Of a DNA stretch of 64,000 bases, positions 26,478-48,735 are shown piece after piece. The stretch lies in the NCBI GenBank assembly GCA_025823825.1, contig GCA_025823825.1_4720.1. The stretch is one strand, 5' to 3'. Made by a program: the position numbers and the translations under genes. Within the stretch, counting starts at the first letter, position 1. Each line of letters starts with the position of its first letter. The notes below the pieces were generated by a model, which saw only the letters and a list, made by a program, of their open reading frames with translations, did not search any database and was not told the origin of the DNA. The DNA is from a phage.

Positions 26478-28052
26478 TTACAATTCAAAATCTTCATCGA
26501 TAACACGCTGGGTAAGCACTTTGTCGCTGAAGAACTCCACCTTGCGCTGATGGTATTTACGGTGCGCTTCGATAGAAGTACATACCAGATACCAGAACGT
26601 TGGCGTCATTCCTTCAAACTTTCCTTTCAGCTGACGCAGTCGTCCCAACACCTGAATGTTACCGGTTCGTGACCCCATCGCTAATGTCATGAACGTCATC
26701 ACCAAGTCAGGAAGGTCGATACCTGTACCTGCCGATTTCACCGTTGTAACGCTAATATCGTTATCCAGCAAGACCATGAAGTCTTCTTCAGCAGTATAAG
26801 GACCGATTTCTAACTCAGGGATACGTTCACTGAGATAATGCGACAACGACTTACACATATCGACGGTTGCACAATACACCAGCATCTTCATACCTTCCTG
26901 ATACTGGTTCATGAAACCCTTGATAATAACGGTATAGATGAAGTTAAAATACGCGAGTTTGAGTTGCTTGTTCTTCATGATAGACTGTTCGAATATCGTG
27001 TGCGAATAAGCTCCACCAAACCCTTTGTATCTGACTTTATCTGTACTGCGTAGTCGGTACGTTACCGCATTTACCGCAATGTATTTCTTGTATTCGCCTT
27101 TCGCATAACGGGCTTCTTTCGGATACATCAAATACAGCATCTGTTCGATAAACGGATCATCGGATACCGCTGTTGCCGACAGATAAATGATTTCCGGAAT
27201 ATTGGCGTAACACTTGACCTTAAACAAGAAATGCAATGCTTCGTGACACTCGTCATGAATCAGCAAACCTATGCCGGTCTTTTCCCAAAACTCAGCGGGA
27301 TGAAAGGCATATGGCGCAACGCAGTTATTCTTCTCGTAGTCCGCAATATAACGTTGGAACATGTTCAAGGAGAACAATGCGATTTTGAAGTCGAGTTCAC
27401 CTTGTTCAACCAAGGTTTGAAACTCCAACATACTGTAACGAGGAATGTCGGGATGCGGTGGATCCTCCTTAGCGTTCCCGCGTATCTCGATAACGTCCCC
27501 TGGTTCCATCCCGAAGAAGTTCAGCAGTGAGCTTCGCCAACCTGGCATGTATCTCGGCGACAGAATGATACCCGTCCGTACACCGCGTCGGAAGGTGATC
27601 TCCTGCGACATGGCCGTTTTTCCTGACCCCGTTTGAGCGGTGTTTAGGCTCATTCTGAAGGGGGTATCCTTACCCCCGTCCATGTACTCCAACCATTCTT
27701 GCTGATCTTGACGCCATGGAAACTTCCATTTCTTTACGAACTCCACTTCTTTACCTGGTACCGGATCGTGATAGACGATTTCCAACCACTCTTTTCGTAT
27801 CCCTCGGGAAAAGATAAAATCCAAAAACGATTTCAACTGTTCACGGAGTAAGTATACCTCGCTATAATCGCTTCTTGCCGCGGCATACGTGTTTATGGTA
27901 TCGGTAACCATTCTCCGTGTACGAGGGTCACGCCGTTTCCTCAGATGCAAACAACGGTCTCGAAGGTAATGGCCGATAAGATGGGCAAATCGAAGTCCGT
28001 ATCCGCTCAGCCTCATGCCGTGCGAGAAGACGTCGATACGAGCTAACTTCAT
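26478..28052 (-). CDS. superfamily 2 DExH-box helicase
   Basis: 524 aa; AQTGSGKT, HDECHEA, SAT, QVLGRLRQ motifs. Confidence 0.75.
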   Translation of the reverse strand: MKLARIDVFSHGMRLSGYGLRFAHLIGHYLRDRCLHLRKRRDPRTRRMVTDTINTYAAARSDYSEVYLLREQLKSFLDFIFSRGIRKEWLEIVYHDPVPGKEVEFVKKWKFPWRQDQQEWLEYMDGGKDTPFRMSLNTAQTGSGKTAMSQEITFRRGVRTGIILSPRYMPGWRSSLLNFFGMEPGDVIEIRGNAKEDPPHPDIPRYSMLEFQTLVEQGELDFKIALFSLNMFQRYIADYEKNNCVAPYAFHPAEFWEKTGIGLLIHDECHEALHFLFKVKCYANIPEIIYLSATAVSDDPFIEQMLYLMYPKEARYAKGEYKKYIAVNAVTYRLRSTDKVRYKGFGGAYSHTIFEQSIMKNKQLKLAYFNFIYTVIIKGFMNQYQEGMKMLVYCATVDMCKSLSHYLSERIPELEIGPYTAEEDFMVLLDNDISVTTVKSAGTGIDLPDLVMTFMTLAMGSRTGNIQVLGRLRQLKGKFEGMTPTFWYLVCTSIEAHRKYHQRKVEFFSDKVLTQRVIDEDFEL

Positions 28053-30055
28053 AACGTGATTACATCCTCCGGTTTAGGTTCTTTACGCGGTAACAGCATG
28101 TAGTCGATCGGATGATCCGGCTTCATGGTTGGGATATAACTGTTCGGGTTTTGGAACGCATCCAGCTGCTCTTGGTGAGCGAACTTCATACTCAAGGAGC
28201 GCATGTTCATGTTCTTCTTGAAGGTACTGAAGTATCGTGTTGTTCCCTGTTTCGGCATGCGATAATCTTTCGTGTGCGGTGAACGAATCATGCTGGCGTA
28301 GAGAATAACATCGAGATGCGAAAGGTTCATTCGCAGACGCTGGGCACACAGACGATGCCAATAGTACAGCACGTTTGCAACTTCTTCCGGTGTTGCTTCG
28401 TCTTCCGAAAGGAATCCGGCACTGAAAGAACCTTTCCCGAATTTGAATTCACGTTCGATTTCTTTTGCGTATTCCATCATGTTTTTGTGGATTAACGGCA
28501 TCTGGAATAACGTACGTGAATTGTCCCAATGTTTCAAGTCGAAAATCACAATCCCGTCAGACGTCACTTCCCAGCTATGGCGTTTAAGATAACGGATAAA
28601 CGCTTTACTCGGTACAACAGGACGTCCACAGAAATCGAAATTGACTTTGAGCTTACGATAGCTTTCATCTTTCCTGTCGTAAATCTCCATATCGCAAAGC
28701 GTCATGTTAAACAAGCGTTGCGGTATCAGCGAACTGATTTCTTCCGCTTCGGCTACGTCGTACAACATGTTCGCAAGACCTAACTTCATCTTAATCAGCA
28801 CGTGTTTACCTTTCAGCTCACGTGCGAGTTTGATGTCGTTCATGTTCTGGCTATAGCGAAGGATATGTTGATATTCCGGTGGGATTGGTGCTGTGGATAC
28901 CGTTGACGAACCATCGTGGTGTTTGGTAGAAAGAATGTTCTGCGTCACCTGTTGCGAACAGGTACGCGCTGCGCCATCGCCGACATTATCAGTCAATGCG
29001 AAGTTATGACTTAATTCACCGTAACACGTTGTACATACCCCAGCAGGATCGGGATGATGACAATAGTTAACGGAGCGCATGCGTACCGTCGTGCCGATCA
29101 ATTCTTTCATGTGTGGTTGTATCGCTACCAACGAACCGTCATCACGAATAATGAATCGACCATGGAAGCCACGCAGGTCGGTCTCGTCGCGGATTGGCAT
29201 CGGGATGGTCTCTTTACTACCACAATCACCAGGATGGAGTCGTTGTACAACCGCTGTCGCTATCTGAAGTTCACGACCGAAATATTCAGACTTTTTAATC
29301 TGCTCTTTGTTGAACAGCAACGATTTTGCCGCAGAACGACTTTCTTTCAAGCTGTCGGGAAGAGAGATCAAACCGGCTGCGTATGACCGCATTACTGGAT
29401 CACGGAATATCTCGGAGTTAATATCGGTCAAGAATCCACGCATCCCAATACACTGCAGCACCTGTCCAATCGAAACGTGTTCGGTTCTTACCGCACGTGC
29501 GATAGGGTTTGCATGTAACGTTTTATCGGTGCTCAGTACCTTTGTCAGTTTCTTGTATGCGCTTTCGATACCTTCACGGGTGGGTTCCGCTTCGGCGATG
29601 ATTTTCTTAACTTCGGGATGTACGGTAATCTGATAAAAATCGTCCGCGCAAATCGTTGTTACGTATTCCTCCAACGCATACGTAAAGAAGTTATATACGT
29701 TGTTGAACATATCGAACAGTGCTTTCCAGAGAACCTCACGATTCTCTTGTGGGTAAGCATACATGCATTGACGATACGCTGCGCTTTGCAACGCAACCGA
29801 CGAACCAGCAGTAAACTTGCGTTTATCGACCAGGTTCTCTTTTGTCAATGGTGTCTCAGGATACATGCGATGCACAGACCAGTGCATGTAACTAAAGAAA
29901 ATGCGTCGCGCACGCAATTCATGAACGCCATCGTCCATCTCGATATATACACGGTCATTAGGCTGTGCCCACTCGAACACCTCATCAACCGGCCAATGCA
30001 TAAGCTCGCGTGCCCTCACACGACGTTTCGTGGTGGTCGTCTGTGTTATAGTCAT
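28049..30055 (-). CDS. RNA polymerase beta'-like subunit, C-terminal portion
   Basis: 668 aa; VLQCIGMRGFL...YAAGL...GDCGS resembles bacterial beta' region F/G (QLAGMRGLM...FREGL...DDCGT); compared from memory. Confidence 0.6.
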   Translation of the reverse strand: MTITQTTTTKRRVRARELMHWPVDEVFEWAQPNDRVYIEMDDGVHELRARRIFFSYMHWSVHRMYPETPLTKENLVDKRKFTAGSSVALQSAAYRQCMYAYPQENREVLWKALFDMFNNVYNFFTYALEEYVTTICADDFYQITVHPEVKKIIAEAEPTREGIESAYKKLTKVLSTDKTLHANPIARAVRTEHVSIGQVLQCIGMRGFLTDINSEIFRDPVMRSYAAGLISLPDSLKESRSAAKSLLFNKEQIKKSEYFGRELQIATAVVQRLHPGDCGSKETIPMPIRDETDLRGFHGRFIIRDDGSLVAIQPHMKELIGTTVRMRSVNYCHHPDPAGVCTTCYGELSHNFALTDNVGDGAARTCSQQVTQNILSTKHHDGSSTVSTAPIPPEYQHILRYSQNMNDIKLARELKGKHVLIKMKLGLANMLYDVAEAEEISSLIPQRLFNMTLCDMEIYDRKDESYRKLKVNFDFCGRPVVPSKAFIRYLKRHSWEVTSDGIVIFDLKHWDNSRTLFQMPLIHKNMMEYAKEIEREFKFGKGSFSAGFLSEDEATPEEVANVLYYWHRLCAQRLRMNLSHLDVILYASMIRSPHTKDYRMPKQGTTRYFSTFKKNMNMRSLSMKFAHQEQLDAFQNPNSYIPTMKPDHPIDYMLLPRKEPKPEDVITL

Positions 30056-30200
30056 TATTGCTTTCCGATTTAAATGGTTTTATCATACGGTTTACCAAAT
30101 CCGTTGGACTTTACTATCGTTGTGATAGCATCGGGAATCCCTTCCCTTAGGTTATGTAGGTGTTAATATATCTCCACTGCTGACCTTTATGTCGGCAGCA

Positions 30201-30686
30201 TTATCCAGCTTTCTGTTGTAAAGCGTATGGATCCATAGCGTCTGACATATCCGCAAAAACGGTGAGAATAAACCCCTTTATCTGTCTCACCTCGGTTACA
30301 CGAAGCCCTTTATCATTGCGATATACGTTTTCTTCACCGACTAACTTTGGTCGAATAACATAAACTCCATCAACAAGCGGGAATGTCGGATACGGATAAA
30401 TACCAATACGAATGATGTTTGGGTGATCGCCTAGAAGGTCACGTCCAAACTTATCGACTCGACCATAAATCGCCCCATCCGCACCTTCCACTTCAATGAG
30501 ATCATTTCGAATATCCTGAAATAGTTGCTCTAACGTGTCGGCGGGATACGCATATGCGACGCCTAACGCCGGATCCTCGACGGTTTTGACACTGAATCCG
30601 TTAAGCCAAACAATCCGTTCATCCGCCCATGTTTCTTCATATACCGTTAATCCATCGCCGTATATGTTGGCGTGTGCTATCTCCAT
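30201..30686 (-). CDS. hypothetical protein
   Basis: 161 aa ORF. Confidence 0.45.
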   Translation of the reverse strand: MEIAHANIYGDGLTVYEETWADERIVWLNGFSVKTVEDPALGVAYAYPADTLEQLFQDIRNDLIEVEGADGAIYGRVDKFGRDLLGDHPNIIRIGIYPYPTFPLVDGVYVIRPKLVGEENVYRNDKGLRVTEVRQIKGFILTVFADMSDAMDPYALQQKAG

Positions 30687-30843
30687 AATCTCATTTCCTC
30701 TTATACGTTAGGATAGATGACATGTTGGATATACGTTGCCTTTGCATATATTGCTTTATTTCCGTCAGAAATAACGGAAAATAAAAACAACGACATAGTT
30801 CCCTCCCACCTCCACATGGGAGAGGGAGGGCTATTCGTGTTTA

Positions 30844-31206
30844 TTACTCTATGCTGTCTTCTTCAGCACAATCCTCTTCTGAACCGTCGAACGTTTTCTG
30901 CACTGCAGTGGTATCCCAGTTGGCAGCGTAATCAGCCATCGCTTCGCGCAGTGCTTCTTCACCAGCATCACCGGCCAGGTCAAGCACAACCAAACCTTGC
31001 GCGACGTTTTGAGCGACAGTATCAATAACGGTCGCATCTTCTTCAAAACTACGTACCGGTTCAATGGTGCCTACATCAACAGCATAGTTCGTGGTCGCTG
31101 TAAGCACGGCGACTTGTAGCGCGTCGCTATCTTCATCATGCAATGCTGCTTCAATACCGATTGGACGGGCCAGTTCTTGCAGTGTTAATTTGCGAATTAA
31201 GTTCAT
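30844..31206 (-). CDS. hypothetical acidic protein, small paralog family
   Basis: 120 aa; VAQGLVVLDLAGDAGEEALREAM resembles TARGLMLLELFGEQGRTELQSEL of 31697-32107. Confidence 0.4.
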   Translation of the reverse strand: MNLIRKLTLQELARPIGIEAALHDEDSDALQVAVLTATTNYAVDVGTIEPVRSFEEDATVIDTVAQNVAQGLVVLDLAGDAGEEALREAMADYAANWDTTAVQKTFDGSEEDCAEEDSIE

Positions 31207-31227
31207 TATATTTTCCTCAGGTGAATG

Positions 31228-31578
31228 TTAGCAATCGTTTAAAACTTTTTCGATACGATGGTTGACGAATTCATTGAACGACTCTTCGGCTTGTTCGATA
31301 ATTTCATCAACGTCGATATCTAATTGTTGGGGTTGGATAACATGCTCTTTCATGGTTTCTAGCCAGTATTCGGCTTTAACCATAACGTTAGCGACATGTT
31401 CGACCTGACTGCGTATGTCGACGATCTGGCAGTCAGGATTGTTAATATCGATGATGTGTCCGTGGTGGTTGATAAAACCTAGCTTATTTGATGCCCTTAC
31501 CGCATCGCGGGTAAGTTCTTGCAAGATTAAATTATTGACGTAGTTCACTGCTACGGAACGATTTTCGTTATCACTCAT
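31228..31578 (-). CDS. hypothetical protein
   Basis: Start set at ATG 31578 (MSDNENRS) with AAAGAGG upstream. Confidence 0.4.
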   Translation of the reverse strand: MSDNENRSVAVNYVNNLILQELTRDAVRASNKLGFINHHGHIIDINNPDCQIVDIRSQVEHVANVMVKAEYWLETMKEHVIQPQQLDIDVDEIIEQAEESFNEFVNHRIEKVLNDC

Positions 31579-31647
31579 ACCAGGGATCCTCTTTAAGTCT
31601 TCACATTCTAGTGTTAAGCAGTTAAAATAAACCGTTCCTTTAATCAG

Positions 31648-31687
31648 CATAAACATCCTCCTCCCACCACATGGGCAGGAGGAGGCG
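31648..31687 (-). terminator. hairpin CCTCCTCCC...GGAGGAGG followed on minus strand by TGTTTATGCTG
   Basis: Inverted repeat seen directly. Confidence 0.5.
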
Positions 31688-31696
31688 TAATATGCA

Positions 31697-32107
31697 TCAG
31701 AAAGGAGGACGATCTTTAAATTCTAACAACGTGTCTTCGAAGCAAGCGATGAGTTCAGACTGCAATTCGGTACGGCCTTGTTCACCGAAGAGTTCCAGCA
31801 ACATTAACCCCCGAGCGGTCTTCGTAGCAACCTCTTCGCAGATGCGGAGATCGTGAACTTCATCATCGTTGACATCTTTACGCAACTGTGCCGCAATGGG
31901 CTTAAGATTGCCGTTTTCATCGTGTTCGTCACGAAATGCATCATAAGCCGCATCGATGTTCGCGATCCGTGTCAATCCTTCAGAATCCCGCCAGTCTCGA
32001 TATAATCCAAGCAGACGGTTATGATTCTTCGTTTTGACGTTCGGTGCTGGAAGGTTGCGCAACAGATGTGGTGTAATCATTGCTATCACGCTATCCGAAT
32101 GATCCAT
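31697..32107 (-). CDS. hypothetical acidic protein, small paralog family
   Basis: 136 aa ORF. Confidence 0.4.
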   Translation of the reverse strand: MDHSDSVIAMITPHLLRNLPAPNVKTKNHNRLLGLYRDWRDSEGLTRIANIDAAYDAFRDEHDENGNLKPIAAQLRKDVNDDEVHDLRICEEVATKTARGLMLLELFGEQGRTELQSELIACFEDTLLEFKDRPPF

Positions 32108-32118
32108 CGTATACCTCG

Positions 32119-34287
32119 TTAGCTTTCGCAGTCATCTGCGTCGATGATTTGTCCGCCAGCAACGTTCAGTTGATGATACAGAATCCTCAACGCACGGTTG
32201 CCGCCAATGGGATATTTCTCGAAGTTGGTTGCAATAGGAATCGCTGACGGTTTATCGGTCGCATAGATGCTTTCGGTGATGCTATCCACCTGTTTTGGAT
32301 TGTTCGCATAATCCATAAAGACGCTTGCGAACCATCCGCCAGCAAAGGCGGTAACCTCACGATGTTCAGATTCGCCACAGTAACGAGTCGGTTGCTCTTT
32401 ACCCGGAGAACTGTATTTATCGCTATTACTGAGTTTCGACGGTAATCCGTGCGCTTGCAATTTAGGGATACCCACCGCTGACCAATCGTTCGCCGTCTTC
32501 TCCAACATCATGATGTACGTGTCACCGATCGCAATATCGTTCTTGGTTGTCCGCCATTGCCCGGAACGCCCACGGTATCGTACAGGACCTTTCTTCAACG
32601 GGAACTCACGAATCAGATTCTCCATACGTTCTGAACCTGCTGCGATACTGTCCGTCGGGATATAAACTTCCGTACCGTGGCGTTGTACGTACCGTAAATG
32701 ATCCCATTTATCCTCATCCGTGATACAGTATTTTTCAACAACCTGTTCCACGAACTCAGGACTGACGATATAGTAGTAGCGCATCAGTGTGTTCCAAGCG
32801 GTCTCCAGATCGCCTGCATCCATCACCGGTTTCAGTTCACGCATGATCTGATCACCAACGCCGTTGATGTAAGGTGCGTTAACACGACTTAAACTCATCC
32901 TTTTGATTACCGTACTATCGTCGAACATGAAGTCCGCAACGTTACCCCATTGGTCGACCGGCATTTCATCGTCTTCCATGATGTCGGTTACGACGAATTT
33001 ATCACCCGCCATACCGGTGAATTTAAACCCGATACCTGGAACAACGTCGTACGTGTACGTGATGGTCACACGCCAATCATCGAGATTCTCTTTACGGTAA
33101 TCGCGGGTTGGTAATACATGACGTAGCTGTCCGTTGGGATTGCGGATATCAATACCATGTTCAGCATCAGCCAGGTTCAACCACCACATCACCGTTTGAT
33201 GATGACGTATCGGCGTACCAACGCGTTCACGTTCGTACTTACGAACAGCATCCTGAATTCGGGTGTAAAGCAAACCAATCGCGTTCTCGTATTTCAGGAA
33301 TTGACGATACGGAGGACGCATCTTCTCTTCCATCATAATCGCACGCTCGCGGGCTTGACGTCCAGAACGACGATGTCGGTCGCTGACAACATCGATATCC
33401 GTTACACGCGCATTCGGTTCCGCGTAAGTGAGATCATCGTAAACATAATCCACACGCTGAAGGTTACACGTCATCATGTCAACAACGCTGAGGATAGGAT
33501 CGATTTCGCGTGTTGCTGCAAGTAACCCATCCTTACGAATACGCTCACCATTCTCGGGTATTGCTTGGTATACCTCGTCATCGCCGTAGAGATTGATTGG
33601 GTATCGTGATTTACCTGATGTGATCGTCCGCTTCTCAATGCCGGTACTGGTGAAATGCTTCAATACACCACGACGGGCAACACCACCATCCTCGATACAC
33701 TGATAGAAGCTACCGAAACACACCTTGCAATCGCGACCGTAACCCCACTCGCGTGTTTCTTGATTGATCGCTGGGCTTTCCATCAAACGAGAATATCGCG
33801 GTACGATCTGGCCTCGACGGAGGGAATGGAACAAGTTGGTTGGTCGAAAACGGAAACCGTACTGCTGATGCATGATGTGATGCTCAGGCACTTCAAGCAA
33901 GCGTAGTTCGTGGCGGTTACCATCCTCTTGGTTTTCGTACAGCACGTAATGCATCGTGTTTGTTTTGATGCTGTTTGCTGTATGCCCCGGTTGGAAACGT
34001 GGGATGATATCTATGATGCGAGATTCAACTGGAAACTCTACTGACCAAGTGTTCTGTCCGTACTGGTATTCGATCCCCGTCGTCAGTCGGGACGGTTTCG
34101 CATCTTTGATAACCAACGCTTGGCTAAGATGTCCGCCAAACATCGCAGCGCGCTGTGCTGAGTTATAATGCAATAGCCCGTTAAGTCCAGTCCCTACGCC
34201 AGTATACTCCTGTTTAATGGGAATGATTTTACCTTCAGCGATTGCCTGCTTCACAGATTCATAAAGAGGTTTTTCTTTATAATGCAT
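32119..34287 (-). CDS. RNA polymerase beta-like subunit, C-terminal portion
   Basis: AGDKFVV..EDDEMPVDQWGNVADFMF..RMSLSRV and GESEHREVTAFAGGW resemble bacterial beta GDKMAGRHGNKG...EDMPYDENG and GEMEVWALEAYGA; start at ATG 34287 with AGGAAG upstream. Confidence 0.65.
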   Translation of the reverse strand: MHYKEKPLYESVKQAIAEGKIIPIKQEYTGVGTGLNGLLHYNSAQRAAMFGGHLSQALVIKDAKPSRLTTGIEYQYGQNTWSVEFPVESRIIDIIPRFQPGHTANSIKTNTMHYVLYENQEDGNRHELRLLEVPEHHIMHQQYGFRFRPTNLFHSLRRGQIVPRYSRLMESPAINQETREWGYGRDCKVCFGSFYQCIEDGGVARRGVLKHFTSTGIEKRTITSGKSRYPINLYGDDEVYQAIPENGERIRKDGLLAATREIDPILSVVDMMTCNLQRVDYVYDDLTYAEPNARVTDIDVVSDRHRRSGRQARERAIMMEEKMRPPYRQFLKYENAIGLLYTRIQDAVRKYERERVGTPIRHHQTVMWWLNLADAEHGIDIRNPNGQLRHVLPTRDYRKENLDDWRVTITYTYDVVPGIGFKFTGMAGDKFVVTDIMEDDEMPVDQWGNVADFMFDDSTVIKRMSLSRVNAPYINGVGDQIMRELKPVMDAGDLETAWNTLMRYYYIVSPEFVEQVVEKYCITDEDKWDHLRYVQRHGTEVYIPTDSIAAGSERMENLIREFPLKKGPVRYRGRSGQWRTTKNDIAIGDTYIMMLEKTANDWSAVGIPKLQAHGLPSKLSNSDKYSSPGKEQPTRYCGESEHREVTAFAGGWFASVFMDYANNPKQVDSITESIYATDKPSAIPIATNFEKYPIGGNRALRILYHQLNVAGGQIIDADDCES

Positions 34288-34318
34288 AGGACTTCCTATT
34301 ATCGAATTGAGGTACGTC

Positions 34319-34672
34319 ATGTCTAACACGCCCCTGAACGACTTTCTTAAGACAAACCCCGATGACCTCATCCACGATCTTGATTTCAGGAACGTTGTTG
34401 AGATGCATCTGGAATATTTCAAAAATGCCGGACTGGTCTCTACGATAGACATACCACCCGAACGTGCCTACGAATTCGATGGTAACTTTTATGGATTGTG
34501 TCGTGTTCTGCTCGGCGAGGGTAGCGAACCAATGCACTGGATAACCATGAGACTCAATGGTTATCGTGACCCTACGGAATACACCGCCGATGTTCTAACC
34601 ATGAAGATTGTCGATACAAGCGCAATCAACACATTAAAACAACAGTACCGCACAATCCACTACAGCGCTTAA
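34319..34672 (+). CDS. hypothetical protein (isolated plus-strand gene)
   Basis: 117 aa from ATG 34319 with GAGG upstream; divergent from beta gene. Confidence 0.5.
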   Translation: MSNTPLNDFLKTNPDDLIHDLDFRNVVEMHLEYFKNAGLVSTIDIPPERAYEFDGNFYGLCRVLLGEGSEPMHWITMRLNGYRDPTEYTADVLTMKIVDTSAINTLKQQYRTIHYSA

Positions 34673-34737: not shown

Positions 34738-36018
34738 TCAGAAACGATTTACAGTACGTCCTGTCCACGCGCTCAGGATGTTGTTACGTTCCATCTCAGC
34801 ACGACGACGTAAACCGTTTGGCGACTGCGGTGCTTGCGGCATCCCCCATCCAGCCGGTTGCATACCCATGCCCGGCCAAGCAGCGTTATTGAACATCGTA
34901 CCGTTACGTTCCGCAACACGGTTCATCAGCGCATCAAACGTGCTATTACCTGCCGGTTGGTTACCACCACTTTCCCATTGATTAGGTTGGACAGGTGCGG
35001 TTTTACCTAACAGGTTATCGATCACACTGCCTGTTGCAGCAGGACGCGGTTGCATACCTTCATGTGCGGCTGCCGATGGATTTGGCTTAACCGTCGGCTG
35101 TGGACGACTGTTCAGCGTTACGCCCATGTTGTATTTCGCTGGCGGAATCTGACCACGATGTTGATTAATCGGTTCAAAATCCTCAACCCAGGTAACATCA
35201 CAATAACCGTTCTCTTTACCGTCGTACTTATCACCAAACAGTTTGATGAGATTGTTCAGCGGTTCCATCAGCTTAGCGAAGCTGTGGATAAGACAATCGA
35301 AATACGGAGCATGGGGATCGCTTGACCCAGCGTTGTACGTTTCGCTTACTTCACCCGCGTGCGGGATAACGTACTCAACCAGGTTTCTCAGCATGTTAAG
35401 ATCTTTCTTGGAAATCTCAACACCACACCAATACGTTTTCTTATCTTTCGTGCTGATGTGTTCTTCTTCCATGAACGGGAAAGTAACGACCGCAACGCGG
35501 GTCATCTTCTTACCCATGTAGGTTGCACCAGTACGACGAAGATAAATTTTGGACAGCGTATACGGCGTATCACGTTTCAGCCAAACGGTGACCAGTTTGC
35601 CCAGGGTCGTTAGTGTTTTATCGCTGGCGTCCGCAAGGATGTTGAAGAACTCTTTTTGCTTCGGCCCGAAACGTTTTGCTTCTTTAGGATTGATTGCGGT
35701 TTCAACCATCCAAATCAGCATGGAGCATAGCGTGGCATTAAAACGAACAACCATCGCGCGGCGCAGGAACTGAAGGACTTCCGATTCGCCGTTCATCACG
35801 TCTTCACTTAGCGGATGGAACAGCACACGTTCAGCCAGCTGATTTCCGGTACGAACTTCAGAAACCGGCATCAGCAACGGCATGCTTTCCACGGTAGCGG
35901 CAACTGCAACAACTTTACCATCCCCATCCGTAAAACGATATTCTAATTCGTGGGCGTCATTCTCAAAATAGTTAACGCTCTGTAGTGCTTTGCGATAAGC
36001 TTCGATAAGCTTCGACAT
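34738..36018 (-). CDS. hypothetical protein with P/Q/G/M-rich C-terminal region
   Basis: 426 aa ORF. Confidence 0.5.
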   Translation of the reverse strand: MSKLIEAYRKALQSVNYFENDAHELEYRFTDGDGKVVAVAATVESMPLLMPVSEVRTGNQLAERVLFHPLSEDVMNGESEVLQFLRRAMVVRFNATLCSMLIWMVETAINPKEAKRFGPKQKEFFNILADASDKTLTTLGKLVTVWLKRDTPYTLSKIYLRRTGATYMGKKMTRVAVVTFPFMEEEHISTKDKKTYWCGVEISKKDLNMLRNLVEYVIPHAGEVSETYNAGSSDPHAPYFDCLIHSFAKLMEPLNNLIKLFGDKYDGKENGYCDVTWVEDFEPINQHRGQIPPAKYNMGVTLNSRPQPTVKPNPSAAAHEGMQPRPAATGSVIDNLLGKTAPVQPNQWESGGNQPAGNSTFDALMNRVAERNGTMFNNAAWPGMGMQPAGWGMPQAPQSPNGLRRRAEMERNNILSAWTGRTVNRF

Positions 36019-40241: not shown

Positions 40242-40314
40242 TTTCAGCCTCGTTACGTAGTGTGAATCAATTTCTGGTTCAGATGATAGTTAATATTAGT
40301 TAAAAATTACAGCC

Positions 40315-41112
40315 TCAGCGGAACATGTCCAACAGAAAACGTTTTGCGAAGGGGTCACGTAACTGGTTGACGCCAAAGCGCGTACGGTCTTCCGTTGTTA
40401 ATGGATTCCACTGACTCTGTTTCGCAAGATCTAACAGCATCCTTTTTATTTTCACCGGCCCACTGTTAAACTGTACGGCTTGGTCACCGAACGTTCCCAA
40501 TGTCATCTTTGTAAATGGAAGATTCGCAACCTCTGGACGATCCCCACCAGTAAGTTTAGTCGACCACTGATGTTTTCGTTTCAAGGTTCCGGTATGGCTC
40601 TCCACCAAAATAAGTTCACCAAAACCGGTTCTTGCCAACAAGTCAGAAACATAGTGCGTGGTGATATACGATGTCTTGGTTATCGTGGGTAATTTACAAT
40701 CCATCGATTCGATATTAGGGAGTCGATCTACAGACGCCATCAACCCACGATAAAGTGTAGCGAGTCCTTTTTGTTTTTCGGTGTGTGGCTCCTTATGTAT
40801 AGCGTGCGGATAAACACGCTTTATTGACGCATAGGTTGGCGCATATATCCGCAAACGAATATGGGGAACGAGTTCATTCACCAGCTGCCTTAGCTGCAGT
40901 AACTCGTTTTGAAAATCCCCTGTTATCATCGATAACGGTAATTTATGTTGTTCAACGTCTTCAAAGCTTTCAACGAAATTGCGTGCTAAAGTACGCAGGT
41001 TGAACAACCAATCCATCGGTGTTTCTGGCTGTTGCTGCACGGCTGATAATGTTGCTGACGTCCCTACCGATAAAGGATAATCACCTAACGTGCGGGCGTA
41101 CATATTGCTCAT
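40315..41112 (-). CDS. hypothetical protein
   Basis: Start set at ATG 41112 (MSNMYAR) with AAGGAG upstream. Confidence 0.45.
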   Translation of the reverse strand: MSNMYARTLGDYPLSVGTSATLSAVQQQPETPMDWLFNLRTLARNFVESFEDVEQHKLPLSMITGDFQNELLQLRQLVNELVPHIRLRIYAPTYASIKRVYPHAIHKEPHTEKQKGLATLYRGLMASVDRLPNIESMDCKLPTITKTSYITTHYVSDLLARTGFGELILVESHTGTLKRKHQWSTKLTGGDRPEVANLPFTKMTLGTFGDQAVQFNSGPVKIKRMLLDLAKQSQWNPLTTEDRTRFGVNQLRDPFAKRFLLDMFR

Positions 41113-41131
41113 ACCCCACAACTCCTTCTTA

Positions 41132-42274
41132 TCATGGCAACGTATCAAGCCAAGCAGAAACCTTTAAGGCATCAACGTTCGGGTATTTATTACGAATGCG
41201 TTCGACCAACAAACGCTTAACGTTGTCCTTTGTCAAGTCTCCACCTTTCTCGATAACGTTATTGACAAAACTGTTCTTTAATAGCGACTGGTTGTTCTTG
41301 GCATCCGTTTTAATTGACCAGACAAAACCTGGATACAAAGAAGGGATAGAACGAAACGTTTTCGCCGCATCGTCTTCCTTATCGCAGCGTATTCGAATAT
41401 GATCGCCCTTCTTCAATGGAGCCAATTCCCGTTCCAACACACGGACAATTTCATCTCCAACAAGACCATGCAGTTTTATCGTCTTATAGACATCTGCTTT
41501 CTTGTTCTCAACAAATTCCCACTGGTCGTTAAACGATTCTGTTAACGTATAACGGAGATACCCCTTTGGACCTTCTTCGCCGTGCGCCAAGCGACCGAAC
41601 GAACCGCCAACCATGATACGTCCTTTCTGGGATTGTAAGTGAATATGTCCGCTCACGATCCATCCCTGGGTCTTCTCCACCATTGCGTTATACGCATCGC
41701 TGCTATGAACACATGTCGCTTTTAACGCTTCTGGTGGAAGCTGATATTCGAACGCACCGTGCATCAGAATGAAGTCCGGCGATCCCTTCTCATCAATAAG
41801 TCGGTTCACGGCCGACAACGTCACATCCGGATCGTGGCTGTAGTTATCTGGAAGATAAAGCACTTTTAAACCAAAGTCTTCATCAACCATGCAGAGGTCA
41901 TCGTAATAACGAACTTTCGCTCCTATCTCCATGACCTCGTTCTGTTCAACGAACCACTGACTTTGCTTCTGGTCGTGTAAATTGGTACCCTCAAGAAAGA
42001 TCAACGTAATATCATGTTTTCTCGCATACCGTAACAACCAGGTACCCCAGGCACGAACAGCAACCACATCACTCGTCACAAATGTCGTAATGCGATCGAA
42101 GACATCGCCACTGAACGTAATCACATCAAGCAGCGCAGGATCTTCTTTTGTAATGTAATAACGCAGTTGGCTAATCAGGTTTACTGTCGGTGTTTGACGA
42201 TGGATAAAGTGAATATCCGACAAATTGATTCCACGTAATACCCCAGGCGTTTTATTTCGACTGAAGTCTCGCAT
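41132..42274 (-). CDS. Mre11/SbcD-like metallophosphoesterase nuclease
   Basis: 380 aa; LSDIHF, SGDVFD, GTNLHD, MHGAFE, SGHIH in order. Confidence 0.7.
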   Translation of the reverse strand: MRDFSRNKTPGVLRGINLSDIHFIHRQTPTVNLISQLRYYITKEDPALLDVITFSGDVFDRITTFVTSDVVAVRAWGTWLLRYARKHDITLIFLEGTNLHDQKQSQWFVEQNEVMEIGAKVRYYDDLCMVDEDFGLKVLYLPDNYSHDPDVTLSAVNRLIDEKGSPDFILMHGAFEYQLPPEALKATCVHSSDAYNAMVEKTQGWIVSGHIHLQSQKGRIMVGGSFGRLAHGEEGPKGYLRYTLTESFNDQWEFVENKKADVYKTIKLHGLVGDEIVRVLERELAPLKKGDHIRIRCDKEDDAAKTFRSIPSLYPGFVWSIKTDAKNNQSLLKNSFVNNVIEKGGDLTKDNVKRLLVERIRNKYPNVDALKVSAWLDTLP

Positions 42275-43444: not shown

Positions 43445-43457
43445 GAGGAACTCCTCT

Positions 43458-44512: not shown

Positions 44513-44577
44513 TAGGATTTAATTTCCAATATAAGGGCAATGTGATATGCCTTATACAGTCGATTGATGTTGTACAT

Positions 44578-44601
44578 CACCTAAGTAATATAGCCGTGAA
44601 A
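44578..44601 (-). promoter_or_regulatory. conserved promoter-like motif, copy 3 (minus strand TTTCACGGCTATATTACTTAGGTG)
   Basis: About 65 nt upstream of ATG 44512. Confidence 0.5.
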
Positions 44602-44610
44602 AATGTTGGA

Positions 44611-45408
44611 TTAACGTGTTCTCCTATCACGATGCGTATACGACTGAAGACCGATGTCCATATGCGGTAACGTCAGCGTCTGCCAGATCTGTCGTGCATA
44701 GCGATCGAGCGTATGATCGTCAGTAACACAATCGACGGGTTCGATGAGGTGAGTCGTATACTGGCTTTTCTCAGAGAAAGGTTCGATGTTAGCTGTATCT
44801 CCTAATCCGCTTTTCACCGTGAAGACAAGACGTGTGACTATCATCGCCTTATGTTGCTGTTCGTTATAACGAAGGCTGCGGTATACGGCATAGCTTCCTC
44901 CTTTTAGGCTTCGGGTATAACGAAGGTCGGAGGTCGTCTCGGAAATCTGATACAGCATCCAGTCCAACGTATCGCGCCAGTACGCATCATCCACATCAGG
45001 AACTGTAATACCATATCGCGTAGGCAGCAGTTCTAAAAGCAATTTATAAAGTCCGCGACGCAAGCCATGCTCTTCTGTTTCCGATAAACCGTTTCCAACA
45101 TAACGTGAAATACGCGTACGTAAATACGTACGGATGAACATATTCGCCATCAGTGTTTTCACTCTGCTACTTGTATCCTCAAAGCGATCAACGCTGAAAC
45201 TCGTTTCAATCAGCCGTCCATTAAAATACAATGCGGCAACATACATCGCATTACTGCTATCACGTTCAATGTTTAAACGACCGCAGATATTGGCTGCGTC
45301 GTTCATGGTAAATTCTAATTTATCGTGTTCGATACGATAGATAATATCCTCTTGGGTTGCTAGGCTCGCAATACGACGATAGCCCGGAGAAGTACGTTTT
45401 ACACTCAT
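44611..45408 (-). CDS. hypothetical protein
   Basis: Start likely ATG 45408 (MSVKRT, GAGGA upstream) or 45447. Confidence 0.5.
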   Translation of the reverse strand: MSVKRTSPGYRRIASLATQEDIIYRIEHDKLEFTMNDAANICGRLNIERDSSNAMYVAALYFNGRLIETSFSVDRFEDTSSRVKTLMANMFIRTYLRTRISRYVGNGLSETEEHGLRRGLYKLLLELLPTRYGITVPDVDDAYWRDTLDWMLYQISETTSDLRYTRSLKGGSYAVYRSLRYNEQQHKAMIVTRLVFTVKSGLGDTANIEPFSEKSQYTTHLIEPVDCVTDDHTLDRYARQIWQTLTLPHMDIGLQSYTHRDRRTR

Positions 45409-45475: not shown

Positions 45476-45490
45476 TAGCCATTAAATGGA

Positions 45491-46129
45491 TTAACCTAAT
45501 TTACCACCGGCGATGTTGGTGAAGTCTTCGCCGTCAGGAACTTGCAGTAGGATACGTGCCATGTCCCAGTTAGTTAATGTGATTGCTTTATCATCGATAC
45601 TCAGTTCTGGTAGGTCGAGTTCATGATCATCAAACTCGTAGGAAATACTCCACGTTTCGTCTGTTTTAGGATCGGTTATCAACACACCGTCTGTTACACG
45701 CATGTAGTCCGGATGCAGTTCATTACTGAATGTGCTGAACGGATCGGTGTAACATTCAGCATACCCCTCGATCTGCTGACGCTGTGCCTTCGTACGTAAA
45801 TCAGGGCACGCCATGATCAGTTGTCGAGATATGCCGTTTGCAGCTCGGAAATCCTCCACGGTGTTACATGGCATAACCACATCGTCGTGGAAGATGTTCT
45901 CCGATTGTCTCAACAGCGTCTTACGGAGTTCAGCATAGTTTATCTGATTGAATGCATCAAACGTTGCTAACGATTCAGCGTAAAAATGCTTTACGTGTTC
46001 GCTTGCGCCGCCGAGACTATTCATCAACTTGTGCCCGTACTCCATGAAACTTTTATCGAGACCGGAGGACATTTCTCCGAACCTCAGTGCACGATAACTG
46101 TCTCGTCCACCTGTAAATATTTGCGCCAT
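45491..46129 (-). CDS. hypothetical protein
   Basis: 212 aa ORF. Confidence 0.5.
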   Translation of the reverse strand: MAQIFTGGRDSYRALRFGEMSSGLDKSFMEYGHKLMNSLGGASEHVKHFYAESLATFDAFNQINYAELRKTLLRQSENIFHDDVVMPCNTVEDFRAANGISRQLIMACPDLRTKAQRQQIEGYAECYTDPFSTFSNELHPDYMRVTDGVLITDPKTDETWSISYEFDDHELDLPELSIDDKAITLTNWDMARILLQVPDGEDFTNIAGGKLG

Positions 46130-46144
46130 TACAGGCGTCCTCCT

Positions 46145-46378
46145 TTAGCAATGGTTGTTAGTTGCTTCTATTTCGTCAAGATAAGGTTCTACGTCATCGC
46201 CCTCCACGAATTCGTTGAACCAGCAGTCAATGGTAGAAATAACCGGTGACTGGTGTTCACATTTCTTAGATACCTTAAAAGGTACGTTATTATCCATCAT
46301 ACCGAGTTCGGGTCGAAAACGCCCGAAATGTTTCGCAGTCCAAATGTCTGGGACGATATGGTTGTTCATCGTAGCGTT
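46145..46378 (-). CDS. RNA polymerase beta' N-terminal subunit, proposed exon 4
   Basis: NATMNNHIVPD...PELGMMDNNVPF aligns to bacterial beta' QMAVHVPL...ALMMSTNNILSP just after DFDGD. Confidence 0.55.
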   Translation of the reverse strand, partial: NATMNNHIVPDIWTAKHFGRFRPELGMMDNNVPFKVSKKCEHQSPVISTIDCWFNEFVEGDDVEPYLDEIEATNNHC

Positions 46379-46727
46379 CAGCATGAGTCGCTACCTCATG
46401 CCCGCAGCTTTACCTGCAGCTTCCGGTGTTACCGGAATGTCCAGAATACATCTTATCCATATTCCAAATGGAACGTAGGACTTCCGCGCTGGATCTCGCT
46501 TGAGACCACGTATTCGTTGAACGTTCTCCTGAACGGAGCTTCGCTGCTGATCGAACATTGTCATGTACGGTAGGCGTCCCCGAAGGGATTGTCATTGAAG
46601 CCGCGTACATCCGCTACCTTGTTTCTACCTTATCGGTTCCTCTTACGAGGCGTAGCGGCCTTAGCCCTTCCCAGCAATTCACGGAATCCAAGCTCTTCCT
46701 TTCGGAAGGCAGGGCCTATGATTAAGC
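46379..46727 (-). ncRNA. group I intron C (ORF-less), boundaries approximate
   Basis: Minus-strand P/Q/R/S-like elements AATTGCTGGGAAG, GATCAGCAGC, GTTCAACGAATA, AAGATGTATTCT; ends in G before exon 4. Confidence 0.5.
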
Positions 46728-46737
46728 ATCCCCGTCG
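46728..46737 (-). CDS. proposed 10-nt micro-exon 3 (C GAC GGG GAT, completes F and encodes DGD)
   Basis: Inferred from frame restoration, not observed. Confidence 0.4.
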
Positions 46738-47113
46738 CTGTTATCGACTATATCTTCATCCTCGTTGCGAGGAGTCTCCCGTTTTGGTCTGTGTTTAACA
46801 GAGCCTACTCTACTCGACATCGCGTCTTTCGATAGTCTGTGAGCACACATCTTAACGAACATTCGTGGATTCCTAAACAGGTGAACGTTCTTGTTGAGAT
46901 GCTTCGCTGCGGATTATTCCCGTCCTACCTCTTTTACCCTACCCAGTTCATTACGCTGGCCCTCATCTGTGTCACCACGATGAGTTGGTGTGTAGTCCGA
47001 TTACAGAAACTTCCCGTCAATTAGAGAGTTTTAACTACGTTCCTGTTACCAGAAACCAGATCCCGACGGTATCAATAAATCAACGTAAGTTATTGATTTA
47101 ATTGAAAAAACTG
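46738..47113 (-). ncRNA. group I intron B (ORF-less), boundaries approximate
   Basis: Minus-strand AATTGACGGGAAG (P), AATCCGCAGC (Q), GCTCACAGACTATCG (R), AAGATATAGTCG (S) in canonical order; GGTAGGGTAAAAG P5-like. Confidence 0.6.
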
Positions 47114-47126
47114 AAATCTGCATTAT
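47114..47126 (-). CDS. proposed 13-nt micro-exon 2 (AT AAT GCA GAT TT, completes Y and encodes NAD)
   Basis: Joining exon 1 ...AAA GGG T to this gives MILKG-YNADF; preceded by G, ends in U. Confidence 0.4.
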
Positions 47127-47492
47127 CTTAATCTTCAGTATGGTTCGCTACTCCATACCCGTACGTCATGTACTGCTTACGTCTTTCACGTAAGAAGAGA
47201 CTATATCTTTCACCCTCAGCATTATCTGGTCGGGGCTCCCATTTCGGCGGTCAGATGACCGGTGGTTTCCCACGCCGCTTGGCCCTAACGCCCGTAAGCG
47301 ATAGTCGTTGAGCGCATCTCCGTTCTGGAGACTTCGCTGCGGATTCCCCAATCCTTGCCGCTTTTACCATACCTGAATGATTAGTTCAGCCCCACGCTCT
47401 GTTCCCAGGCGTGGTTGGTGGACAAGGCTCTAAGTAGGTTCCCGCATTAGAGAGTTCTGCGTGACAACATTTCTGCGTTACTGGGCCTAACG
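47127..47492 (-). ncRNA. group I intron A (ORF-less), boundaries approximate
   Basis: Minus-strand TAATGCGGGAACC (P), AATCCGCAGC (Q), GCTCAACGACTATCG (R), AAGATATAGTC (S); GGTATGGTAAAAGCG P5-like; GCCC near 5' end can pair with exon GGGU. Confidence 0.6.
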
Positions 47493-48735
47493 ACCCTTTC
47501 AAGATCATCACGCTTAACCCGATGGTGTTATCCTGCGGATCGCGTTTAACCTTGGTGATTTCAAGACATTGGTTACTGCTTCGGTCAAGTGATGGGTTTC
47601 GAACAAAGCCACACACAATCCCATCGAACGGTGTATCAGCAATAAGCTCATCGTGCAGCTCGCTCATCATTGGATGATAATTACGGACATGTTCCGCAAC
47701 GAACGCACGTGCTGCTCTCGGTGAATAACCACGATGGAATAACTTGGATTGGATATGTTCTTTATTGGTTAAAGTAAATGGTGCGTATGGGAAATGCAGA
47801 TGATAATAACGATGGTTCGCTGTTATCGAACTGATTACGGTACGCGTGGTGAATGGATGTAATGTACCTAATATGTTTTTACGTGTGATACCTTTCTTCT
47901 TACCAATGAACTCATCGAAAATTGCTGCGTGGTATTGCAGTAGCTTCAATTGCACTTTCGCCATCCAGTTTTCTTTCTTTCTGGCGCTCAAAGGTGTTGT
48001 TGGGTGATAGATACTGTTCAACGTACCAATAGCATCGATCGCACCTTCCATTTTGCTATCTGCATAACGACCGGTTGGCGTATTCTCGATAACGAACATC
48101 ATGGCCGCAGGAAAGCTGATATACTGGCTGAAGAACTTATCACGATGGATACGGATGAATTCTCGTAGCGTGTCAACTTTCTCCGTGTTCTTCGGTCCAC
48201 GTAACGTAGGTCCTTTATACAAGATCTCCATTATGCGATCGAAGTTCTGTATAAAGCTATTTACGCCGCGACGTATCCCGAATACATCGAATTGCTGCTC
48301 CAGATAGTTCTTGAGTTCGATGGGTCGTTTTACATTTGGACGGTAACTGGCATCAATGAGCCACGTCATCGTTTCAAAGCTTTTGATATTCAACTCGCTT
48401 GCCAGCACGAGATGGACCAACGGGTTAATGAACGCATCAATTCCTTCAGGAACACGCGCCCAAACCGTCGAACGAATCTCCTGTTCTGCCGGGTAGGTCA
48501 CGACCGTTTTACAGTTTGGACACACCGTGCCGAGTAGCTCACCACGATTGTAGAAACCACAACCACATTGTGGTGTGATATCCAACGTATCGCTGGAGTA
48601 AACACGGGTGATAAAACTGTTTAATTTCTTCTTCTCTTCGACGACTTTTGTATCGTAATCATTCAACAAAATCGGCGTAAAAGGAAGTTCTGCGAGCTGT
48701 CTATCGAAACTCACGATATCGAGCATGATGGCCAT
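47493..48735 (-). CDS. RNA polymerase beta' N-terminal subunit, exon 1
   Basis: Zinc ribbon CGCG...CPNC, GRYADS, KNILGTLHPFTTRTVIS, RNPSLDRSSNQ in beta' order; ORF ends just before DFDGD would be expected; 35-aa ORF tail is intron read-through. Confidence 0.65.

Follow-up and report, generated by a model that had tools for sequence, protein, structure and literature searches.

The non-virion RNA polymerase (nvRNAP) of phage phiKZ (gp55-56.1, gp68, gp71-73, gp74 and gp123; PDB 7OGP, 7OGR, 8QUE and 9RJS) consists of five subunits, a composition established together with the role of gp68 by biochemistry and cryo-EM (PMC4666361, PMC8287921). Its gp123 has been described as a highly diverged homologue of the beta N-terminal (beta N) part, in which few motifs can be detected (PMC4666361), and is encoded far from the nvRNAP cluster. 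In the phiKZ beta' N-terminal (beta' N) gene, a single intron that carries an HNH ORF breaks up the NADFDGD motif between the N and ADFDGD, and gp55 and gp56.1 form a spliced fusion (2026 preprint); an intron is also found in the beta C-terminal (beta C) gene gp71-73. Erwinia phage RAY encodes its beta N (gp2) remote from the gp223-249 cluster, which holds the other nvRNAP genes (gp223, gp248 and gp249), and its beta' N gene (gp223, 495 aa) is intron-free. A split beta/beta' nvRNAP is also present in Bacillus phage AR9 (PDB 7S00/7S01), which is not known to form a nucleus.

The stretch of 64,000 nts analyzed here (the window) is collinear with Escherichia phage vB_EcoM_Goslar (NC_048170.1), its closest relative, with 92-98% identity overall and 96-98% across the RNAP region; the Goslar counterparts are gp165, gp171, gp175 and gp247/gp185, to which gp039 has to be added as the remote beta N gene. 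The same four nvRNAP genes occur in identical order in both phages, whereas Goslar lacks inserts found upstream in the window, including those for a Dam-type methyltransferase and a DUF7448 protein. Gene-by-gene synteny extends to phiKZ gp54-gp75 and RAY gp222-gp249. With a probability of about 0.93, the region is the conserved block of early genes from chimallin to helicase in a Goslar-like chimallivirus, a nucleus-forming jumbo phage of the phiKZ type; the block carries four of the five nvRNAP subunits, and beta N is encoded elsewhere.

The original prediction recognized three RNAP fragments, all on the minus strand, and their assignments as beta' C-terminal (beta' C), beta C and beta' N are borne out by matches to PHROG profiles and to the chains of 7OGP. 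The beta' C subunit (28049-30055, minus strand; 668 aa, uninterrupted), homologous to phiKZ gp74 and Goslar gp165, matches PHIKZ074 (7ogp_D, residues 11-654, E 1.3e-86) and additionally AR9 nvRNAP (7s00_D) and bacterial beta' in a phmmer search of the PDB, and belongs to phrog_3015 (E 4.7e-170). The beta C subunit (32119-34287, minus strand) is the homologue of phiKZ gp71-73 and Goslar gp171 and, unlike the former, has no intron. Its longest ORF extends over 32119-34452, but the start is probably at 34287, the position corresponding to the start of the Goslar CDS. This longest ORF matches 7ogp_C (gp71-73; E 1e-85) and aligns with residues 1063-1241 of E. coli beta (phmmer, PDB), in addition to phrog_3295 (E 2e-180) and, weakly, Pfam RNA_pol_Rpb2_6. 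Five small ORFs lie between the beta C and beta' C genes. Finally, the beta' N ORF at 47386-48735 (minus strand) matches 7ogp_A (gp55; E 1.4e-59) and phrog_2987 (E 2e-113).

A partial RNAP set is thus present as had been proposed, but the number of subunits is four and not three. Indeed, the ORF at 37662-39248 (minus strand; 528 aa), homologous to Goslar gp175, is a gp68-type, sigma-like fifth subunit: it matches PHIKZ068 (7ogp_B/9rjs_B, E 6.7e-28; query 68-563 versus 20-517 of the 521 residues of the chain) and, in local phmmer searches, phiKZ gp68 (8.8e-31) and RAY gp243 (8e-22). The function of gp68 as an nvRNAP subunit is taken from PMC8287921. The suggestion that one of the other large ORFs could be an additional RNAP subunit therefore proved right, although this protein is no substitute for beta N. 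The four subunits match the phiKZ chains nearly end to end, with a protein identity of only about 30-35%. AR9 is far more distant: it matches beta' N, beta' C and beta C at E 1e-7 to 3e-17, and its promoter-specificity subunit differs from that of the window.

As for beta' N, its identity was correctly recognized, while its extent was not, since the ORF at 47386-48735 comprises exon 1 and continues into an intron that had been missed along with two others. Beyond residue 414 (nt 47494) there is no further homology, and the ORF as read (~449 aa) closes with 35 unrelated residues and lacks DFDGD. The gene, a homologue of phiKZ gp55, is predicted to run from 48735 to 46145 on the minus strand in four exons. 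Exon 1 (47493-48735) ends with ...VMILKG and the first base of a Tyr codon, and its protein is 100% identical to that of Goslar over 413 aa. Exons 2 and 3 are micro-exons of 13 nts. The former (47114-47126; AT AAT GCA GAT TT) encodes (Y)NAD(F) and differs from Goslar by synonymous changes, for which the internal guide sequence (IGS) of intron 2 carries compensating ones; the latter (46725-46737; C GAC GGG GAT GCT) encodes (F)DGDA and carries two differences from Goslar (GGT GAC), both at synonymous third positions. Exon 4 (46145-46381) encodes the C-terminal 78 aa, corresponds to the hypothetical gp185 of Goslar without its ATG, and is matched by phiKZ gp56.1 (exon 2 of gp55; E 5.7e-5). Judging from the sequence, three group I introns in tandem, separated by the two micro-exons, cut through the NADFDGD catalytic motif, and the predicted spliced product would contain GYNADFDGDALNATM across the junctions. 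RAY gp223, being intron-free, serves as reference for this product: the spliced beta' N of 501 aa (residues 11-478) aligns with it (26-491 of 495; E 1e-86) over all three junctions, and its NADFDGD aligns with that of phiKZ gp55.

The three introns fall within 27 nts of coding sequence, the same 27 nts in which the phiKZ intron lies at another position, none of them contains an ORF, and all three boundaries obey the rule of a U preceding the intron and a G terminating it. Intron 1 (47127-47492, minus strand; 366 nts) gives a full-model match to Rfam Intron_gpI (32 bits, E 4.9e-6) and has a candidate 4-bp P1 (GGGU/GCCC). It is missing in Goslar, which displays a precise empty site, but is carried by an IMG/VR relative (L013), and intron regions from DNA polymerase genes of Av-05 and SPO1-like phages show 69-86% similarity to its core. 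Intron 2 (46738-47113, minus strand; 376 nts) is common to Goslar, although the window lacks the 1065-nt HNH endonuclease (gp186) cassette found there; its full-model match (46.9 bits, E 1.7e-10) ends on the terminal G at 46738. Its 7-bp P1 covaries between the two phages, pairing exon CAGAUUU with IGS GGAUCUG in the window and exon CCGACUU with IGS GAGUCGG in Goslar: five of the seven differences over 386 nts lie in this duplex, and pairing is kept in all five. Intron 3 (46382-46724, minus strand; 343 nts) yields a partial match to the Intron_gpI core (model 50-157; 16.7 bits, E 0.054-0.19) and is 99% identical in Goslar, where it is unannotated. We failed to identify a P1 for intron 3, but its removal is required for joining DGDA to LNATM. 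The MFE z-scores of the three introns are modest (-1.3, -1.9 and -2.6, the last being -2.55 before rounding).

Alternatively, beta' N could be truncated or decaying, with non-coding debris downstream, or its parts could be made as separate polypeptides without any splicing. The unrelated residues at the end of the ORF would fit this explanation, as would the Goslar annotation, which keeps gp247 and gp185 as separate genes, and the Rfam scan of the window, which was empty at the gathering threshold (50 bits, above the scores of all three introns). We nevertheless regard it as improbable: three Intron_gpI matches occur in tandem, the empty site of Goslar is exact, and removal of the introns restores both the frame and NADFDGD, without gaps relative to RAY gp223 and phiKZ gp55. 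Furthermore, the changes in exon 2 and the IGS are compensatory, the gp55 and gp56.1 fusion of phiKZ is proven to be spliced, and the nvRNAP is essential, so that the catalytic motif must be expressed. Splicing of three introns, all ORF-less and at positions other than that of phiKZ, therefore remains the preferred explanation. Staphylococcus phage Twort is comparable in having several group I introns at conserved sites of one protein-coding gene; Landthaler and Shub reportedly described three of them in its orf142 in 1999. What sets the beta' N gene apart is that its introns are packed into 27 nts, leave two 13-nt micro-exons and all disrupt one catalytic motif.

In agreement with the original prediction, we fail to detect beta N in the window, either by tblastn with Goslar gp039 (best E 0.12) or with HMMs built from six beta N sequences (--max; best E 1.5) or from five, leaving out Goslar (best E 0.38). 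On the other hand, the five-sequence HMM recovers Goslar gp039, used as positive control, with E 2.4e-118. This gene (39828-41624, annotated as "polymerase") matches phiKZ gp123 (E 1.2e-40), is the sole beta N-family match across Goslar 1-234.6 kb, and adjoins the capsid gene ~80 kb before the position equivalent to the window start; at such a distance from the nearest window end, beta N cannot appear in the window. Similarly, beta N lies at 111.6 kb versus 41.9 kb for the cluster in Noxifer, and at ~115 kb versus ~5 kb in IMG/VR UViG_3300045988_173921, while two IMG/VR contigs carry gp039 with 99-100% identity. The proposal that beta N lies outside the window is thus supported by Goslar and other relatives, which point to the presence in this phage of a beta N of the phiKZ gp123 family, likely encoded near the major capsid gene.

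The other proposal, that beta N has diverged beyond recognition, is not supported; beta N would then be one of the large ORFs at 34738-36018, 36074-37660 or 37662-39248. This is conceivable given the divergence of phiKZ gp123 (PMC4666361), and neither the PDB nor Pfam yields a match for two of the three. However, every window ORF scores E > 0.3 with the beta N profile, and each candidate has its own phiKZ orthologue other than gp123 (gp68, gp69 and gp70), the last two of which are absent from purified phiKZ nvRNAP, whereas gp123 is present (PMC4666361). For instance, 36074-37660 (minus strand) encodes the nuclear protein importer PicA/Imp1 (phiKZ gp69, 3.2e-18; RAY gp244, 3.3e-19; phmmer), for which a PDB search gave no match; PicA, gp174 in Goslar (PMC11087766), is an import factor defined by experiment, also in Goslar. 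The ORF at 34738-36018 (minus strand), likewise without match in the PDB, is a nuclear-shell-associated homologue of phiKZ gp70 and PhiPA3 gp64 (phiKZ gp70, 5.3e-23; RAY gp245, 1.2e-32; phmmer). Profile searches place it in phrog_3520, a PHROG of unknown function, and identify a further flagged ORF, 52139-54292 (minus strand), as a divergent family B DNA polymerase (PF20286, E 4.2e-204); neither is an RNAP, and the additional subunit was recovered by phmmer. These specific orthologues, together with the location of the true beta N gene elsewhere in all relatives, effectively refute a diverged beta N among these ORFs.

It is just as implausible that the three fragments are parts of the RNAP packaged in the virion (vRNAP), since, although chimalliviruses have two paralogous split RNAP sets and the Goslar annotation labels all as "RNA polymerase beta subunit", the top matches of the fragments are the nvRNAP chains of 7OGP (E 1e-60 to 1e-86), the other RNAP-annotated Goslar genes (gp078, gp196, gp205 and gp207) map outside the window and match it weakly, as paralogues (1e-5 for gp078, E > 0.4 for the others), and the syntenic neighbours chimallin, gp68 and PicA mark the context of the nvRNAP.

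By homology with phiKZ, we infer the following order of expression for the nvRNAP of this phage. The injected virion RNAP would transcribe the early genes of the window, and the beta' N pre-mRNA would self-splice its three group I introns, yielding ...ILKG-YNADFDGDA-LNATM... with the Mg-binding DFDGD loop. The subunits would be made in the cytoplasm and then imported into the phage nucleus via PicA/Imp1, whose gene sits within the nvRNAP cluster itself. There they may assemble as beta'N-beta'C-betaN-betaC-gp68, with promoter binding provided by the gp68-like subunit, and the assembled enzyme would transcribe middle and late genes without the host RNAP.

A split nvRNAP set with a remote beta N is already known, and the RNAP genes of the window are ordinary in being a standard nvRNAP cluster whose beta N is normally encoded ~80 kb away. 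The exception is the intron arrangement in beta' N, which represents a modest new variant.

Matches to the PDB (phmmer) and to PHROG profiles bear out three ORFs recognised in the original prediction as subunits of a split multisubunit RNA polymerase, and their assignment as beta′ C-terminal (beta′ C), beta C-terminal (beta C) and beta′ N-terminal (beta′ N). The ORF at 28049-30055 matches gp74 of the phiKZ non-virion RNA polymerase (nvRNAP; chain D of structure 7OGP, 7ogp_D, E = 1.3e-86; PHROG E = 4.7e-170) and aligns with bacterial beta′ residues about 733-975; this gp74-like product corresponds to the bridge helix and trigger loop region. The ORF at 32119-34452 matches phiKZ gp71-73 (7ogp_C, E = 1e-85; PHROG E = 2e-180) and also E. 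coli beta residues 1063-1241, and its gp71-73-like product corresponds to the part with the second DPBB. The ORF at 47386-48735 matches phiKZ gp55 (7ogp_A, E = 1.4e-59; PHROG E = 2e-113). The window holds not three but four subunits. The suspicion that one of four other large ORFs could be an additional subunit was right: 37662-39248 matches phiKZ gp68 over nearly its full length (7ogp_B, E = 8.4e-28; 9rjs_B, E = 6.7e-28; local phmmer against gp68, 8.8e-31). gp68 is the fifth nvRNAP subunit, integral to the enzyme, required for activity and promoter binding, and located in the place of sigma (PMC8287921).

The profile and homology searches place the other three flagged ORFs outside the polymerase. 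The ORF at 36074-37660 is a homologue of gp69, the nuclear import factor PicA/Imp1, and is collinear with Goslar gp174, which is PicA of Escherichia phage vB_EcoM_Goslar (Goslar; PMC11087766). The ORF at 34738-36018 is a homologue of gp70 and of PhiPA3 gp64, a shell-associated protein which is not among the components of the purified nvRNAP; because the phiKZ nvRNAP biochemistry excludes gp70, this ORF was ruled out as a subunit. Neither of these two ORFs gave a meaningful match in the PDB searches. Finally, 52139-54292 is no RNA polymerase at all, as Pfam and PHROGs identify it as a divergent family B DNA polymerase.

Nearly all long ORFs of the window lie on the minus strand, and the order chimallin, beta′ N, ..., gp65-gp70 homologues, beta C, beta′ C, helicase is that of an nvRNAP locus. 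Gene-by-gene phmmer comparison with phiKZ and Erwinia phage RAY revealed strict synteny with phiKZ gp54-gp75, with one-to-one, ordered matches to phiKZ gp54, 55, 56.1, 65, 66, 67, 68, 69, 70, 71/73, 74 and 75; synteny and phmmer thereby also locate gp67 (ChmC/Imp6) at 39453-40241 and the SbcD-like nuclease gp65 at 41132-42274. Whereas phiKZ and RAY have beta C and beta′ C next to each other, the window has small minus-strand ORFs (30056-32118), counterparts of Goslar gp166-170, between the two genes. The closest homology of the polymerase genes is not to the virion RNA polymerase, either of phiKZ (gp80, gp149, gp178, gp180) or of Goslar (gp078, gp196, gp205, gp207). The Goslar virion-type gp078 matches the beta′ C of the window at only E = 1e-5, gp196, gp205 and gp207 hit only as distant paralogues or are unmatched, and all four sit beyond the region equivalent to the window. 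Judged by homology, the RNA polymerase genes of the window are nvRNAP subunits. Every sequence feature sought for a chimallivirus nvRNAP was found except beta N within the window, which would be unexpected for the family. The five phiKZ polypeptides co-purify as a rifampicin-resistant enzyme transcribing late genes, a property known for phiKZ only (PMC4666361).

The absence of the beta N-terminal (beta N) gene from the window was upheld, the best tblastn match with Goslar gp039 having E = 0.12 and the best profile matches E = 0.38-1.5. Two explanations had been offered, divergence beyond recognition or a location outside the window. The phiKZ counterpart gp123, the beta N-terminal half of the nvRNAP, is indeed strongly divergent and has few motifs that can be detected (PMC4666361). 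Yet a beta N HMM built from the RAY, Noxifer, PA7, RSF1 and VP4B genes, without the Goslar sequence, retrieved Goslar gp039 at 2.4e-118 as the sole hit in Goslar 1-234.6 kb, while with filters off it scored no window ORF better than E = 0.38. In Goslar, the match to phiKZ gp123 (7ogp_E, E = 1.2e-40) is gp039, annotated "polymerase" and located at 39828-41624, two genes away from the major head protein gene. The start of the window corresponds to about 123.6 kb in Goslar, which puts gp039 some 80 kb ahead of the window and supports the second explanation. The family keeps its beta N gene at such a remote site: in RAY, beta N (gp2) is apart from gp223/248/249; in Noxifer, it is at 111.6 kb as compared to 41.9 kb for the cluster; in the IMG/VR contig IMGVR_UViG_3300045988_173921, it is at about 115 kb as compared to about 5 kb for beta′ N. 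A gp039 homologue is found at 99-100% identity in two Goslar-like IMG/VR contigs.

Goslar is the sole megablast match of the region 28049-48735 (coverage 98%, identity 98.2%), and by local blastn the whole window is collinear with the 237-kb Goslar genome between about 123.6 kb and about 186.2 kb, with an identity of 92-93% in the first 10 kb and of 96-98% in the remainder. Considering this identity together with chimallin (48828-50723, Pfam and PHROGs), the DNA polymerase, two helicases recognised by Pfam and PHROGs, and the PhuZ tubulin, whose position was taken from the Goslar annotation and collinearity, the source is a Goslar-like nucleus-forming jumbo phage (Chimalliviridae). Positions 1-14127 are 92-95.5% identical to Goslar and 14054-64000 are 96-98% identical, a step which suggests mosaic divergence or recombination among Goslar-like phages. 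Three segments of the left part have no Goslar counterpart. An 850-bp segment (1864-2713), in place of 33 bp in Goslar, carries a D12-class N6-adenine DNA methyltransferase (ORF 1871-2698, minus strand; PF02086, E = 2e-60); 10559-11450 belongs to a minus-strand ORF of 326 aa (10559-11539) with a DUF7448 domain (E = 2e-24); and 7594-7989, roughly 400 bp, contains a 142-aa ORF with no family match. The 484-aa plus-strand ORF at 23648-25102, whose Goslar annotation reads BspA-family leucine-rich-repeat surface protein, is an odd presence within a phage replication block. Short intergenic sequences of 30-60 nt (13107-13171, 44573-44615, 52092-52123, 58405-58436) are repeated elsewhere in Goslar at 84-100% identity; some overlap annotated putative terminators, and together they probably represent a repeated terminator/promoter module.

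The beta′ N gene itself is split. The match of its ORF to phiKZ gp55 and RAY gp223 ends at residue 414 (...VMILKG, nt 47494), ahead of the catalytic NADFDGD, and DFDGD does not occur in the unspliced ORF. The gp55 chain in the PDB, in which PHIKZ055 and PHIKZ056.1 are fused, is a spliced product. Our model, entirely on the minus strand, consists of exon 1 (48735-47493, ending ...VMILKG plus T, and containing the Cys4 zinc motif CGCG...CPNC), intron 1 (47492-47127, 366 nt), exon 2 (47126-47114, a 13-nt micro-exon), intron 2 (47113-46738, 376 nt), exon 3 (46737-46725, again a 13-nt micro-exon), intron 3 (46724-46382, 343 nt) and exon 4 (46381-46145, 237 nt). The three introns, all ORF-less, thus fall within 27 nt of coding sequence, inside the NADFDGD codons. 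In the predicted spliced mRNA, from which 1085 nt are removed, ...AAAGGGT would be followed by ATAATGCAGATTT, CGACGGGGATGCT and CTGAACGCT in turn. The joined exons are in frame and encode 501 aa (...ILKG YNADFDGDA LNATMNNHIVPDIWTAKHFG...), and the junction peptide of this predicted beta′ N would span GYNADFDGDALNATM. Removal of the introns restores the uninterrupted frame conserved in RAY gp223 and phiKZ gp55: residues 11-478 align with residues 26-491 of the 495 of the uninterrupted RAY gp223 (E = 1e-86), without gaps at the junctions, the NADFDGD aligns with that of phiKZ gp55, and the match to 7ogp_A reaches E = 6.7e-65. Furthermore, exon 4 is matched by phiKZ gp56.1 (E = 5.7e-5).

Other ways of joining this gene were weighed. 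An alternative 3′ site of intron 3 is in frame but was rejected, since its product (DGDARLMLN) would contain three additional residues that RAY, phiKZ and E. coli do not have. An alternative 3′ site of intron 2, giving DFDNSDGD, was also rejected, as it would disrupt the universal motif and does not agree with where the Rfam model ends. The ORF at 46410-46610 (MYAASM...), considered as the last exon, did not extend the phiKZ alignment in phmmer and is covered by the third intron match. A further protein split or a translational bypass over a 114-nt spacer was dropped, the true last exon being 46145-46381.

The introns are assigned to group I. A whole-window Rfam scan at the gathering threshold (50 bits for RF00028, Intron_gpI) returned nothing, and the introns were exposed only by scanning the 1.3-kb region 46300-47600 in E-value mode, which gave three tandem minus-strand matches: 47513-47177 for intron 1 (32.0 bits, E = 4.9e-6, full model), 47104-46738 for intron 2 (46.9 bits, E = 1.7e-10, full model, with its end at the predicted terminal G), and 46686-46482 for intron 3 (16.7 bits, E = 0.05-0.19, limited to core positions 50-157). 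None of the three reaches the gathering score; by E-value the matches of introns 2 and 1 are significant, that of intron 3 marginal and on a partial model. At all three proposed boundaries the 5′ exon ends in U, as expected for the G.U pair of P1, and the intron ends in G. The boundaries of intron 1 are fixed independently by the empty site in Goslar, relative to which it is a G-terminated insertion of 366 nt after the T of a Tyr codon; its core is similar to intron regions within DNA polymerase genes of SPO1-like Bacillus phages and of E. coli phage Av-05.

Intron 2 offers comparative evidence for its P1. In the window, the exon sequence CAGAUUU and the internal guide GGAUCUG (47063-47057) form 7 bp, while Goslar has CCGACUU and GAGUCGG. 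Over 386 nt the two phages differ at seven positions, five of which fall in this 7-bp duplex and change A-U to C-G, U-A to C-G and G.U to A-U, with two fully compensatory pairs; the two differences in exon 3 are both synonymous third-position changes. For intron 1 a P1 of only 4 bp is a candidate. No P1 was found for intron 3, where a possible guide near the 3′ end, GGCAU, was rejected because its differences from Goslar are not compensatory. The z-scores of minimum free energy folding are modest to weak for these introns. The comparison with Goslar was done by pairwise alignment; a three-way MAFFT alignment, which wrongly set the Goslar HNH cassette against intron 1 of the window, was kept only for the columns comparing the window with IMG/VR and otherwise discarded.

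The locus is polymorphic among relatives. Goslar does not have intron 1 and carries in intron 2 the HNH endonuclease gp186, on a 1065-nt cassette (168217-169281 of NC_048170.1) flanked by the inverted repeat ttacgtgcaccgac / gtcggtgcacgtaa, whereas in the window this cassette is cleanly missing at 46738-46745, with only "ca" in its place. phiKZ, on the other hand, has a single intron at N|ADFDGD, which makes a fourth insertion site, at a distance of 5 nt. At least two further Goslar-like genomes are present in IMG/VR (IMGVR_UViG_3300045988_173921 and IMGVR_UViG_3300011560_000001), and the first of them (3817-13427), at 97% identity to the window, shares its allele with three introns and no HNH endonuclease. 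An exact 29-mer of intron 1 found no match in IMG/VR, and a second 30-mer found one contig. The public Goslar annotation of the beta′ N region (167622-170910) also looks wrong: by our exon model, gp247 is a truncated beta′ N reading into the intron, the "hypothetical protein" gp185 is the last exon (exon 4), and intron 3 (167859-168201) is unannotated.

By homology with phiKZ, the injected virion RNA polymerase would transcribe the early block, the beta′ N transcript would undergo self-splicing, and the subunits, made in the cytoplasm, would be imported via PicA/Imp1; together with the sigma-like gp68 homologue and beta N, whose gene is remote, they would form the enzyme for later genes. We infer each of these steps; homology, synteny, a window devoid of beta N and the anatomy of the introns are the direct results. 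The finding is real yet ordinary: the phage is closely related to one that is published and experimentally studied, and its gene arrangement is known. The split five-subunit phiKZ-like nvRNAP, with its gene layout and its beta N gene at a distance, is already established, and Goslar carries annotations of the same genes. Modest novelty resides only in the three group I introns that, with two 13-nt micro-exons between them, interrupt the active-site motif, and in the variation of this arrangement between Goslar-like phages; we found no description of it in the searchable literature. The useful corrections are the count of four subunits, the identification of the gp68-type subunit and of PicA/Imp1, and a beta′ N gene model that was wrong both here and in Goslar.

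We consider it quite probable (about 0.8) that three ORF-less introns and two micro-exons interrupt the NADFDGD codons of the essential beta′ N gene, a site which would be a multi-site homing hotspot and may act in competition between phages. With the strain-to-strain presence and absence of introns and the compensatory P1 changes at an active-site motif, the beta′ N locus lends itself well, as a natural system, to the study of homing and co-conversion of introns in nucleus-forming phages. If this reading is true, the DFDGD codons would be a multi-site intron-homing hotspot in chimalliviruses, with co-evolution of exon and guide sequences visible between strains, and the role in competition would be analogous to that of the PhiPA3 intron endonuclease gp210, for which it has been shown.
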